In this document: positions 50,590 to 64,000 of the stretch, in pieces | Layout: each line of letters opens with the position of its first letter | How positions within the stretch are numbered: the stretch's first letter is position 1 | From: Eledone cirrhosa | Taxonomy: Eukaryota | Assembly (NCBI GenBank): GCA_964016885.1 | Contig: OZ024742.1 | Span: 172,732,001-172,796,000, forward strand | DNA: 64,000 bases | Direction of reading: 5' to 3' | Program-made: the position numbers and the translations under genes | Notes under the pieces: generated by a model | The model's input: the letters and a program-made list of their open reading frames with translations, nothing else | Database searches by the model: none | Told to the model about the DNA's origin: nothing

Positions 50590-51720
50590 AAACGGGAAAA
50601 ATGAAACGAAATTTCATATCCCACTCTTAGTACGGCTGTTACTTAAATATAAGTATGTACACGTACATACATATATGTATACAGACGTACAGTAGTATGT
50701 ATATATATACATACATGCACACATATATATATATGTCCGTATGTATTCACTGAACATTTATTATAATGCTCGGTGTGTTTGTAAACAAACATCCCGTATT
50801 AAGCAGTAGTGTCTAGCAACCATCGTTGCTCGTTTGTTCAACACTGACAAAGGAACGATGTACTAGTTTCAAGCTTATTAGCTATTGTCAGTAACGTATA
50901 CCTTCCTGCCAGATTATTGAACATAAATACTTACCTTATGCATATTAACTGCTGAGTAGCCCAATTTGCATATCGAGTGGGTTAATCGGCCGGGTGCACC
51001 GAAAACGATTAACCGGCCGATTAAGCCACTCGATATGCAAATTGGGCTACTCAGCTGTTAATATGCATAAGGTAAGTATATATGTTGAACAATCTGGCAG
51101 GAAGGTATACGTTGCTGACGATTGCTAATAAGCTTGAAAGCAGTACAGCGTACCTTTGTCAGTGTTGAACAAACGAGCAACGATGGTTGCTAGACACTAC
51201 GGCTTAATACGGGATGTTTGTTTACAAACACACCGAACATTATAATAAATGTTCGTATAAGTGCCCGTATGTATCACGCCTGTGCGAAACATGGACATGG
51301 TTGAGGGAGCCGACAGGTAGAGAAGGCTGCGACACGACGCGAGTGATTCACTCATACAACCCCTTACCTCCTACAGTAGTAATTCCGATTTAAGAAACAA
51401 TTTTGAGTGACAGGTGTTGAATGAAAGGAACCAAATATAGAACGGCCATGTGTGACAAAAAATACCGATGACGTGTACAATTATTGACCACTCATAGAAT
51501 GACAACAACAGGATATAAGCTGCCGAGTTAAAGCCGCGGGTGTAACTGGACATTTGGAAACTCTGCTTCGTAGAAACGAGACGTATCTGACGACCTTGCG
51601 ATTTCAGAGTCAGGTTCGATCATTAAATCGATCGTGCCTCGAGCTGGTCGCCAGAGAAACGATTGTAATATGTCTAATAAATGTTATTCGTCGTAACACT
51701 GATTTTCTTGTTCTTATGTG
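50590..51720. mobile_element. Fold-back of family D (about 421-nt HHR unit) fused to a second HHR element
   Basis: Left arm 50590-51010; inverted arm 51013-51254. HHRs at 50855-50897 (minus), 51109-51151 (plus) and 51580-51674 (plus). Confidence 0.85.
51580..51674 (+). ncRNA. Hammerhead ribozyme with 62-nt domain II
   Basis: gacgtat-CTGACGA-[62 nt]-GAAA-CGATTG-TA-atatgtc (7-bp stem I). Confidence 0.75.
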
Positions 51721-51889
51721 ATATATATATATATATATTGAAAAGTTTTATTTAAAATTGTTGGGTTACAACAAGTAAATATTTTATAACTGATATAAAG
51801 CACTCGACAAGTTTTGGAGTAGATATACGATATTAAACAAATGGAAACTATATTTATAAAACCATATTTATTTCATTATACATATTTAG

Positions 51890-54067
51890 ATATCTTCTTC
51901 TCTAAAAGACATACCTCTACCTAAGAACAAAGACTTTATTAAACAATTAATAGAAAAATCAGACTCTTTTATAAGAAGAATCAGGTGGCGTGCCTTCCAC
52001 TTTGATAAATCTAATCTAAATGAAAATCTTTCAGACTTAGATAAAGTTTTCAAATCTAAAAAAAATCCACCCCCCCAACAAACTATTAATGGATTTTGAA
52101 AACGATATAATTTCTATCATCCAAGGAATCAAATTCAAGAGAAACTTCAAAGGCCAGTACTATCTAAGAAGCATTAAGGATAATATTGAAGGCTTGGAGA
52201 GAACAGAGAAGATCTTGGTGAAATCGGACAAAACCAACAACCTTTATGGAGTGCAAAAAGACATGTATAATGGCCTTATATTGAAAGAACTAAGGAAAAA
52301 GTACAAGGTAGCAAATAAGGACGAACTGGAAAAAATGACTCTTGAGGCATCTTGTATAATGCATGAGTTAGACATTGAGAACAAAACACAACCCTTCTTG
52401 CCTAGGAAACCCAAGATCAATATGAAAGATCACAAAATAAATTTTGAAAATGATTTGCCAGTCAGATTGATTGCACCATCAAAATCTGACCTGGGTAAAC
52501 TTAGCAAAAACATTCTAGACAGGGTGATACAGCAAATTAAAAACTTACATAATTTACCTAACTTAACCTTATGGAAGGGGACTGGTGAAGTTATTGAGTG
52601 GTTTAAAGAAATTAAATATAACAATAATAATAAATTTATTCAAATAGATATTGCTAACTACTATTCATCTATTACCCCTAATCTACTGAATAAGGCACTA
52701 AATTACGCATTCAAACATACAAACCTTACTAGCAATGAAATGCACATTATATTATCGGCAAGGAAAACATTGATAGAATTTAATAACCAACTATGGACTA
52801 GGGCGGATAGAGATAATAATTTCGACATTACTATGGGATCATCTGACTCAGCTCAGGTAACGGACCTTGTGGGCCTATTTATAATTAATTCGCTGCATAG
52901 AAAAATACCTGGTGTAACCGGAGGATTATATCGTGATGACATGCTTTTACTTATTGAAAATAATAAATCTGAACTAAATAGAAAAAAAACAAATTATACA
53001 ATTTTTTAATTACCTTAATCTAAAAATAGAAATATAGAATAACCATAGAATAGTCAATTTCCTAGATGCAACACTAAATCTCAACACATGTCTTCACTAT
53101 CCATTTCACAAACTAAATGAAAACTTGAATTATGTCAATTTTAACTCTAATCACCCCAGATCTGTTAAAAATACTATAGTGAACTCTGTTCAAGAACGTA
53201 TCTCAAGAATTTCATCTAATAAAAATATTTTCGACGAAAAAGCGCAGTATAACAATGAAGCGTTAGCTAGAGCAGGATATAGTGATAAAATTAAGTATAT
53301 CGATAATAATAGGCAAACTAACCAAAATAATAGCAATTTTAATTACGGCAACAACTTTAGCCGGAAAAGAAATAGAACTAGAAATATAATATGGTTTGCC
53401 CCCCCCCCCACCATTCTCACTAAATATTAAAACCCACATTGCTAAACTATTCTTTAATGCTCTTGACAAACACTTCCCTAGAACACATAAATATCACTCA
53501 ATTTTTAATAGACATACTATAAAATTAACTTACTCGTCCACCAAAAATTTAGCACAAAATATTAACAGAATAAATAATAGGAATCTAAAACCTAACCAAA
53601 ATACCGGTAATAACCAAAACGATATTCAATTAAACAACTGTAACTGTAGAAATAAATCTAAATGTCCGTTAAATAACAATTGCTTAGTTAAAAATATAAT
53701 ATACAATTGTAATGTTAAAACTAACTTAAATTCTTTTAACTCTGTTGGTTCCACCTCGACAGAATTTAAACTTCGCTACAATAATCATAAGAATTCTTTC
53801 ACAGATCCAAACAAAAAATCTTCAACCTCACTATCAGGCTTACTCTGGCAACTTAAACATGATAACGGTGGGTATTCGATGTTTTGGAATATTGTCTCAA
53901 GAGAGATTCCTTTTAATTCTTCATCTGAGACATGTGACCTCTGTGTGGAGGAGATATTCTTTATATTAAAATCCCAAAATTCCCTTAATTTAAGGAGCAA
54001 TTTATTCAGTTGCTGCAGACATAGATTGAACTCAACGTTTAAATATAAATATAAATTTAAAATGTAA
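51890..54067 (+). pseudogene. PLE RT + GIY-YIG ORF, disrupted
   Basis: SLKDIPLP..FIRRIRWRA, KSDKTNNLY, KDHK..RLIAPSKSDLG, DIANYYSSI, FDITMGS, GLYRDD, NFLD, CNC..CPL..C..IIY, CDLC..CCRH. Three frameshifts and an in-frame TAG near 53035. Confidence 0.95.
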
Positions 54068-62676: not shown

Positions 62677-63560
62677 ATATATATATACATATATATATAT
62701 ACATATATTAATGTATATAGATACATACATATATTTGATAAACTCTACAATAATATCTCTTTCTCTCTCACTTTCACTCTCTCTCTCTCTCTCCCTCTCT
62801 CTCTCTCTCTCTCTCTCTCTCTCTCTCTATATATATATATATATATATATATATATATATATATATATATATATATATATATATATATATATATATATAT
62901 AGAGAGAGAGAGAGAGAGAGAGAGAGAGCTAGAAGAATATTTTATTATACATTGTTGCATTGTTCGATAATGATAATAAAGGAAAACGAAAATATTTTAA
63001 CAAGTCAAGAAAGTAACATAACCTACTGAAATAAAAATACTATTTTCTTGGATAAATATAATTGTAATTTTTATTTCTCATCCTATCACAAGTTTTGTAA
63101 AACTCAATCTGATATAAAAATAGAAGTTATTGAGAAATATATCTCTCTCCATAGAAATATCTTCACTAACAAAAAAGCATATGATAGGGCATACAATTGA
63201 ACTAGTTGAGTGGAATGTACTCAATTAAAGCAACACAAAGGACAGCAGAATCAACACCAACAATGGAAACATCAAATACAAACACAAGCAACAGCAGTAT
63301 CAACAATAATAACTACATTAACAACAACAATGACAATGGATGCAACAAACAACCAGAATTATAATAGTAGAACAAATATTTGCAATTTATCAGTACGTTT
63401 CGGATTATTAAGTACGTCTCTCTCTCTCTCTCTCTCTCTCTCTCTCTCTCTCTCTCTCTCTCTCTTCTTTCTCTATCTCTCTCTCTCTCTCTCTCTCTCT
63501 CTCTCTCTCTCTCTCTCTCTCTCTCTCTACCTCCTTCTAATATATATATATATATATATA

Positions 63561-64000
63561 TAAATATAAGTATGTATACGTACATTCATATATGTATACA
63601 GACATACCGTAGTATGTATATATATACATACATGCACACATATATATATATATATATATATGTACGTATGGGTTTACCGAACATTTATTATAATAAATAT
63701 TCGGTAAACCCATACGTACATATATATGTGTGTGCATGTATGTATATATATACATGCTACTGTACGTCTGTATGCATATATGTATGTGCGTATACATACT
63801 TATATTTAAGTATCAGCCGTACTAAGGTAGAGAAATGAAATTTCGTTTCACTCTTTTCCATTTATCGTTTTCGGTAAGCCCGGCCAACAAACTCACTCGA
63901 TATGCAAATTTGACTGCTCAGCCGTTAATATGCATAAGGAAAGTATATACTTTCAAACGGTCAATCATCTGACAGGAAGGTATACGATGCTGACGATAGC
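63561..64000. mobile_element. Family D fold-back crossing the monomer junction (runs off the window)
   Basis: Hairpin centred at 63690/63691. The plus arm reads through the unit end into the unit start at about 63863 and reaches acgatg-CTGACGA at the window edge. Confidence 0.85.

Follow-up and report, generated by a model that had tools for sequence, protein, structure and literature searches.

We analysed 64,000 nt of the genome of Eledone cirrhosa (NCBI GenBank assembly GCA_964016885.1, contig OZ024742.1, positions 172,732,001 to 172,796,000 of the forward strand; hereafter the window, with positions counted from its first letter) and describe in it a repeat, family D, that carries a hammerhead ribozyme (HHR). 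We propose that family D is probably a non-autonomous, non-coding metazoan retrozyme of the non-LTR type (LTR, long terminal repeat) in an octopod genome, whose DNA copies were made by the reverse transcriptase (RT)-endonuclease of a Penelope-like element (PLE). Animal retrozymes are already known and a mollusc family was to be expected; family D is a further family of that kind. It bears on two points, the mobilising enzyme and transcription. On the first, PLEs have been called a “strong candidate” for the retrozyme mobiliser on the basis of co-occurrence (PMC7229834), and homology to PLE pseudo-LTRs (pLTRs) is the second argument (bioRxiv 10.64898/2026.07.22.740005). To this published argument of co-occurrence and homology family D adds PLE insertion marks on a non-coding repeat with a canonical HHR. 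On the second, a 2020 review found that retrozymes seem to be without promoters (PMC7761336), and family D supplies a promoter candidate. A literature search of partial coverage, without the supplements that may list cephalopod families, found no description of an octopus retrozyme, and the words “ribozyme” and “retrozyme” do not occur in the repeat annotation of Octopus vulgaris. The sample is three loci in this one window, studied by sequence analysis.

The repeat unit and its hammerhead ribozyme

BLAST and profile searches place family D in the window as five pieces at three loci, and nhmmer profiles of the core and tail found no further copies within the 64 kb. The pieces and their junction are as follows.

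50590-51009, minus strand: c1, whole unit; its tailed 3' end abuts (TA)n
50590-50643, minus strand: tail of c1, 54 nt, the interval separating both observed 3' ends
51013-51254, plus strand: c2, arm inverted relative to c1, covering unit nt 17 to about 258
55922-56318, plus strand: c3, begins near unit nt 15-20; its tail-less 3' end abuts (TA)n
63561-63694, minus strand: c5, inverted, 5'-truncated, tail-less arm; its 3' end abuts (TA)n
63687-63863, plus strand: c4a, 5'-truncated 3' part of the unit, with the tail at about 63809-63863
63864-64000, plus strand: c4b, unit start; the window end cuts inside its HHR
63861-63878, plus strand: junction region of c4a and c4b, bridged by a small predicted hairpin (-4.9 kcal/mol)

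The unit is c1, exactly 420 nt long with 36% GC. An earlier note on this DNA had placed a single unit at 50590-51010 on the minus strand; the single unit stands, but it reaches only to 51009, position 51010 being part of a palindrome spacer. At locus 1, c1 and c2 form a head-to-head palindrome, absent from the earlier note (242 nt, 94% identity), with a gap of only 2-3 nt between the arms, and c2 is joined at its 3' end (51254) to an unrelated HHR element at 51255-51720. A possible repeat of junction bases at the c1 5' end was dropped, as only those 2-3 nt separate the arms. At locus 2, c3 has diverged to 72-74% identity with c1 and c2. Locus 3 reads (TA)n, c5 (minus), c4a (plus), c4b (plus), with c5 and c4a 93% identical. 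Given that the arms within a locus are 93-94% identical and the loci 72-89%, each palindrome arose from one event or was later homogenised.

Family D has no coding capacity that we can detect. The longest stop-free frame in six frames of the tripled unit is 51 codons, and in tblastn searches none of 79 PLE homologues matched any copy; these homologues match the window only at 51902-54031 and 36596-36807. Non-coding, 420 nt long and with a GC fraction of 0.36, the unit lies within the range of retrozymes (about 150-450 nt, GC below 45-50%), and it is strongly self-paired (fold z of -6.0 for c1 as a linear RNA and -5.2 for c1 as a circle, with a third value of -5.3). We find no homology between family D and the other HHR families of the window beyond short chance or microsatellite matches. 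The earlier note had proposed a second, unrelated retrozyme family: the repeat is indeed non-coding, retrozyme-like and unrelated in sequence, but its PLE insertion signature is common to the window's PLE terminal-repeat families. A search of GTDB genomes with an exact 26-nt HHR stretch, made as a check for host contamination, returned no match. The copies in the window are mostly decayed.

The unit end runs directly into the unit start at 63863/63864, as the earlier note had observed and as abutting BLAST matches confirm: 63687-63863 is the 3' part of the unit (87%, E 1.6e-57) and 63861-64000 its 5' start (79%, E 6e-31). When a permuted c1 unit is aligned with 63687-64000, 265 of 305 columns match, and c4b matches the c1 start at 109 of 129. 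Since c4b resembles the c1 start and c1 continues through the HHR to the end that precedes c4b, the two together close the unit at about 420 nt. The predicted HHR cleavage site is 149 nt downstream of the junction, which is therefore not a ligation scar. The junction is seen at one of the three loci, where 314 nt of head-to-tail sequence, less than one unit, is visible. Of the refuting condition set in the earlier note, one half thus holds, the junction being unique within the window, and the other half does not, as no copy of the family runs into coding PLE sequence.

Three HHRs are complete and a fourth is cut by the window end.

50835-50923, minus strand: c1 HHR, type I, helix I extended; core region at 50855-50897, cleavage predicted 3' of 50861
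51109-51151, plus strand: HHR of c2; helix III palindrome lost
56026-56068, plus strand: HHR of c3; predicted cut 3' of 56062, best-preserved core
63984-64000, plus strand: 5' half of the HHR of c4b, cut by the window end

The four HHR copies of the earlier note are therefore present, but one is incomplete and they represent only three loci, because c1 and c2 are arms of one palindrome. The complete HHRs have the CUGANGA and GAAA boxes and a GUA cut site, a helix I of 6 bp followed by an internal loop and then about 17 bp, a helix II of 4 bp over a U-U at its base, an A-rich loop 2, and a helix III of 2 bp within a six-base palindrome. The arrangement of loop 1 and loop 2 may resemble the tertiary contact of the schistosome HHR. 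In the HHR alignment 92% of cells are paired, as against 33-44% when the partners are slid. The canonical metazoan HHR has a helix I of 6 bp, a helix II of about 4 bp and a palindromic helix III of 1-2 bp, and needs a tandem partner (PMC4209133). Judged by motif and predicted fold, family D as a family has this canonical type I geometry, though its single copies are defective. It does not fit the minimal PLE consensus, which has an extra base after the core, G10.1-C11.1 and a longer helix II (PMC4209133 supplement). The HHR families of the window at 50277 and 55643 fit that consensus by eye.

As a separate observation, the differences between the c1 and c2 arms cluster in the HHR (50855-50897 versus 51109-51151), where 43 of the 242 columns contain 6 of the 14 (post hoc Fisher test, p 0.02); between c1 and c3 only 5 of 64 differences lie there. 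The clustering could be chance or a favoured loss of cleavage at locus 1.

Insertion marks and the proposed RNA template

A PLE insertion is described as a partial tandem, often accompanied by an inverted 5'-truncated copy next to it and by a tail of 30-40 bp, which only one end bears (PMC8557442). This tail corresponds to the sequence that separates two internal start sites of the RT (PMC11167929). Family D has the same architecture. An inverted, 5'-truncated arm adjoins the body at two of three loci and a partial tandem is found at one of three. There are two kinds of 3' end, separated by 54 nt: c1 and c4a have the tail, c3 and c5 lack it, and a profile of the tail matches only c1 and c4a. 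Each of the three free 3' ends lies against a (TA)8+ array; such arrays, counted with margins of 5 nt, make up 4.4% of the window.

50532-50589, no strand: (TA)n target at the c1 3' end
56319-56342, no strand: (TA)n target abutting the free 3' end of c3
63540-63561, no strand: (TA)n target abutting the free 3' end of c5

According to structure prediction, the tail-less ends lie at the loop of a small hairpin and the foot of a second one marks the tailed end; the two inversion points also fall at predicted hairpins, with weak energies of -4 to -8.5 kcal/mol. At the tailed end, 2 nt are common to the next unit start and the target. Such pairs of tailed and tail-less ends also occur in two other, PLE-linked HHR families of the window.

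From these features we propose the following course for family D as a retrozyme. A multi-unit locus would be transcribed. By analogy with described retrozymes, intact HHRs may dimerise via the self-complementary helix III and cut 3' of GUA, and the released unit RNAs may be ligated to circles. A PLE protein would then nick (TA)n DNA, the targets being those observed here, and RT would start inside the RNA at either of two hairpin sites 54 nt apart, yielding the tail-less and tailed ends that we see. RT would read through the intact HHR and may cross the unit boundary, as at the junction at 63863, observed once. Often it would halt at a hairpin, whereupon an inverted arm could be made by snap-back or a second priming; palindromes are observed at two of three loci, and we found nothing on snap-back in PLEs in the literature searched.

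The length of c1 bears directly on the template. It is exactly one unit, with the HHR uncut inside, while an HHR-cut linear monomer allows only 271 nt from the tailed start; c1 is longer and must therefore have been copied from a circle, a multimer or an uncut transcript. Its exact length is accounted for by a single turn round a circle. But c3, which begins at the other 3' site, likewise stops no more than about 20 nt from the unit start, a position compatible with either a true RNA 5' end or a structural stop.

An RNA 5' end is what one other explanation calls for. Family D may be a SINE-like (SINE, short interspersed nuclear element) non-autonomous PLE whose copies derive from a linear, uncut, unit-length RNA with its 5' end near unit nt 1-20; the HHR would be an inherited passenger, no circle would form, and the junction at 63863 would be an RT jump between two unit RNAs. 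The earlier note took the junction to show a tandem or circular template. Such a template fits, but a jump between linear unit-length RNAs yields an identical junction. The 5' ends of c1, c2 and c3, at two independent loci, fall within about 20 nt of the unit start, and c1 and c3 share this 5' stop despite different 3' start sites, as the linear RNA would have it. Moreover, an anole PLE inserted mainly from uncut RNA and its HHR mutants inserted normally (PMC11167929), and the HHRs are decayed in these genomic copies. A hairpin at unit nt 1-27 can, however, account for the common stop, and the HHR is of the retrozyme type rather than PLE-minimal. Two weaker points also go against the linear RNA: a hairpin is predicted over the junction, at only -4.9 kcal/mol, and the 2 nt shared by the tailed end, the next unit start and the target are expected if the RNA continues past the RT start. 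We hold this explanation to be possible but on the whole unlikely. It and the retrozyme reading both depend on PLE enzymes.

Alternatively, family D might be the pLTR of an autonomous PLE whose open reading frame (ORF) lies beyond 64000 or at 51902-54067. The insertion architecture is that of PLE pLTRs, and a Hydra-type element does lie nearby: c2 precedes it by about 650 nt and c3 follows it by about 180 nt. Its ORF, however, is bounded by another repeat family, with an inverted copy at 51720-51887 and an HHR and end at 55643-55740, which makes family D a neighbour and not its terminal repeat. At locus 3 the unit start resumes after the tail and the HHR cut follows 149 nt on, leaving no room for an ORF, and family D contiguous with an ORF for RT and a GIY-YIG endonuclease was not found in the sequence up to 64000. 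We therefore consider a pLTR very unlikely. A chance motif or an assembly artefact is barely credible and already largely refuted: Rfam gives no hammerhead match and chimeric reads can create palindromes, but there are three loci with E-values to 1e-57, arms that differ by 6-7%, unlike a read artefact, and a full core with its helices and palindromic helix III in register.

Several results weigh against the retrozyme that we favour. Each of the three complete HHRs is defective: c1 has G8A in the core and 4 of 6 pairs in proximal stem I; c2 has all six of these pairs (one G-U) and lacks one pair of helix II and the palindrome of helix III; c3 has five of six and has lost the pair adjoining the core. 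At the same core position, G8C abolished cleavage in the anole PLE study (PMC11167929). The perfect stem I reported in the earlier note exists only as a composite of the 5' arm of c4b and the 3' arm of c1 or c3. Covariation across the three HHR sequences is not significant (119 of 500 shuffles scored as high). A scan of the whole window against Rfam at the gathering score gave no hammerhead match and no hit at all. At E<=10 over 50500-56500 there were 72 matches, all below the gathering score and none a hammerhead, the top ones being microRNA models on microsatellites or the palindrome. With Rfam silent, the HHR call rests on the core motif and the fold. Without the TA-rich microsatellite part, the fold is only slightly better than chance in c1 and c3 (z of -2.1 and -1.1) and reaches z -3.7 in c2, and as the 3' region of the unit is TA-rich, two of the three (TA)n contacts may be partly seeded by the element. 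The 54-nt tail is longer than the 30-40 bp of PLEs (PMC8557442). Two complete tandem HHRs are not seen in the window, nor did Tandem Repeats Finder report a 420-nt array within it, so that the window does not display the consecutive complete HHRs, at least two, of the working definition of an active retrozyme in the preprint (bioRxiv 10.64898/2026.07.22.740005). Finally, family D has no sequence in common with any PLE in the window, so we do not name the mobilising partner. Taken together, the earlier note is borne out in part in its observation and supported in part in its interpretation.

Like the metazoan non-LTR retrozymes of coral, mussel and axolotl (Cervera and de la Pena 2020, PMC7229834), family D has a non-coding unit of a few hundred nt with GC below 45%, a type I HHR with a short palindromic helix III, a self-paired fold, head-to-tail continuity and PLEs alongside; it also has the U-U at the helix II base of axolotl HHR_Amex2. 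Unlike them, it sits at the upper edge of size (420 nt, mussel 350-390) and is known from sequence alone, with one junction and no two-HHR array in the window. It shows inverted arms and a tail, and in the main text of that paper the word “inverted” does not occur. As in Li, Clavereau, Pollet 2026 (bioRxiv 10.64898/2026.07.22.740005), retrozymes appear as PLE-dependent, non-autonomous PLE derivatives. The evidence of that preprint is co-occurrence and pLTR homology in 35 species, none of them a mollusc, and in the text covered the words “tail” and “promoter” do not occur; for family D it is the structure of the insertions, and the window yielded no pLTR homologue. With PLE pLTR insertions, including those of the Hydra clade and non-autonomous Chlamys elements such as MRC1 (Craig et al. 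2021, PMC8557442; Frangieh et al. 2024, PMC11167929), family D shares the inverted 5'-truncated copy, the partial tandem, the optional tail and the (TA)n targets, while it differs in having no ORF, an HHR that is not of the minimal PLE type and a tail of 54 rather than 30-40.

The octamer and transcription

The earlier note had also pointed to an octamer motif, ATGCAAAT, upstream of the HHR. We confirm it on the sense strand of all four copies (three loci), 72-80 nt before the core, and it is invariant across the four.

50964-50971, minus strand: octamer of c1, 5' arm of a hairpin
51035-51042, plus strand: octamer of c2, sequence match
55944-55951, plus strand: octamer of c3, sequence match
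63902-63909, plus strand: octamer of c4b, sequence match

The octamer lies within the longest invariant run, 11 nt, of the 123 shared columns. For a given 8-mer the chance of such invariance is 0.026-0.034, but an 11-nt run arises somewhere in 22% of shuffles; the chance that a random 421-nt unit carries a sense-strand octamer is about 0.02. The window holds 11 octamers against 5.6 expected, seven of them outside family D, and none was found within 300 nt upstream of the eight other HHR copies of the window that were tested. At all three loci the octamer falls in an arm of a predicted RNA hairpin, and a promoter role is therefore possible and unproven. In c3 the partner arm has changed and the octamer has not, a slight point for a role in DNA. 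We regard a promoter role, suggested by sequence, as tentative and rather doubtful.

The promoter of newt satellite 2, an HHR repeat, reportedly contains an octamer. This repeat is reported to have an internal small nuclear RNA (snRNA)-type RNA polymerase (Pol) II promoter (Coats et al. 1994, as cited in PMC2220036); in family D the octamer is the one part of such a promoter that we see, and the two, from distant phyla, are set side by side by description. In snRNA promoters the octamer belongs to the distal element, at -170 to -250, and a proximal element lies 40-70 nt before the start (PMC9652321). This spacing would place the start of family D near unit nt 210-290. Both c4a and c5 begin at unit nt about 245, within that range, and a hairpin explains the position equally well. 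A stretch near 56112 in c3 may resemble a proximal element; it is absent from c1 and c2, and we have not used it. An origin as a tRNA-derived SINE with a Pol III type 2 promoter was rejected: a tRNA scan gave none, and there are no B boxes in the four regions scanned.

The fullest form of our proposal, an octopod retrozyme with its own snRNA-type octamer promoter, like that reported for newt satellite 2, whose circular RNA is copied by a (TA)n-targeting PLE from two fixed internal starts, c1 being a full turn, we consider decidedly unlikely as a whole. If it is true, the genomic copies of family D would speak both for a promoter in animal retrozymes and for the identity of their mobiliser; the promoter design would also be common to a mollusc and an amphibian.

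Other elements in the window

The window is AT-rich and laden with microsatellites. The PLE beside family D has a decayed ORF.

51902-54067, plus strand: frameshifted RT-endonuclease ORF of a Hydra-clade PLE with RWR, DKT, YRDD and CxCX5C; not part of family D

The motifs RWR, DKT and CxCX5C mark the Hydra clade, whose insertions lie in (TA)n (PMC8557442), and this element exemplifies a clade that is a candidate for the mobiliser. Among 79 matches of the ORF piece 52041-53006, the best is in Argonauta hians (E 1e-75, 45% identity) and two others are named as Octopus sinensis, in keeping with an octopod host. In the supplement of PMC8557442 there are four “octopus” matches, two of them Naiad among the rows listed. 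A Pfam scan of 18 of the 70 long ORFs matched only RVT_1 (5288-6652) and Exo_endo_phos (61336-61791); the Hydra-clade ORF had no Pfam match and is classed by its homologues and motifs. The whole decayed insertion in (TA)n spans 51720-55740, comprising an inverted tailed copy (51720-51887), the ORF and a 3' region of about 1.6 kb that ends at 55740 after the HHR at 55643. Relatives of its terminal repeat lie at 2798-3050 and 31228-31751.

The HHR element fused to c2 (51255-51720) has its core at 51587 and a helix II region of about 60 nt. Beyond the Hydra-type insertion, at 55742-55781, 25-40 nt from the 3' end of this element recur in inverted orientation, and a diverged relative is found at about 30790-31210. 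On the other side of c1, sharing with it the (TA)n at 50532-50589, 49947-50531 is a perfect palindrome of another HHR family (264-nt arms, 100% identity, 1-nt spacer, cores at 50145 and 50277). Only its right arm carries a tail, of about 57 nt. The palindrome is either a very young insertion or an assembly artefact. Further HHR-like motifs occur at 58306 (first box changed, good stems), as an inverted pair at 22677 and 22834, and at 20027 on the minus strand.

Additional PLE remnants are present. On the minus strand, 4405-7769 holds a second PLE-type RT (RVT_1), followed downstream by endonuclease-like frames; stops and frameshifts interrupt these sequences, and direct and inverted repeats (3565-3997, 7003-7769) flank them. 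At 35154-38100 there is a 1.26-kb inverted repeat (98.7%) whose spacer contains a Hydra-like endonuclease remnant at 36584-36807. Frames at 40248-41283 (minus) look by eye like a degraded PLE-type RT and have no Pfam match. A GC-rich remnant resembling a long interspersed nuclear element, at 58800-62700 (minus), includes the endonuclease/exonuclease/phosphatase domain at 61336-61791. Lastly, a dispersed repeat of 150-190 nt, of SINE-like size, is present in about nine copies with 78-94% identity.

2268-2460: copy of the dispersed repeat
8604-8800: copy of the dispersed repeat
11425-11607: copy of the dispersed repeat
13245-13362: copy of the dispersed repeat
23045-23216: copy of the dispersed repeat
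43725-43926: copy of the dispersed repeat
44811-44969: copy of the dispersed repeat
46014-46212: copy of the dispersed repeat
49310-49448: copy of the dispersed repeat

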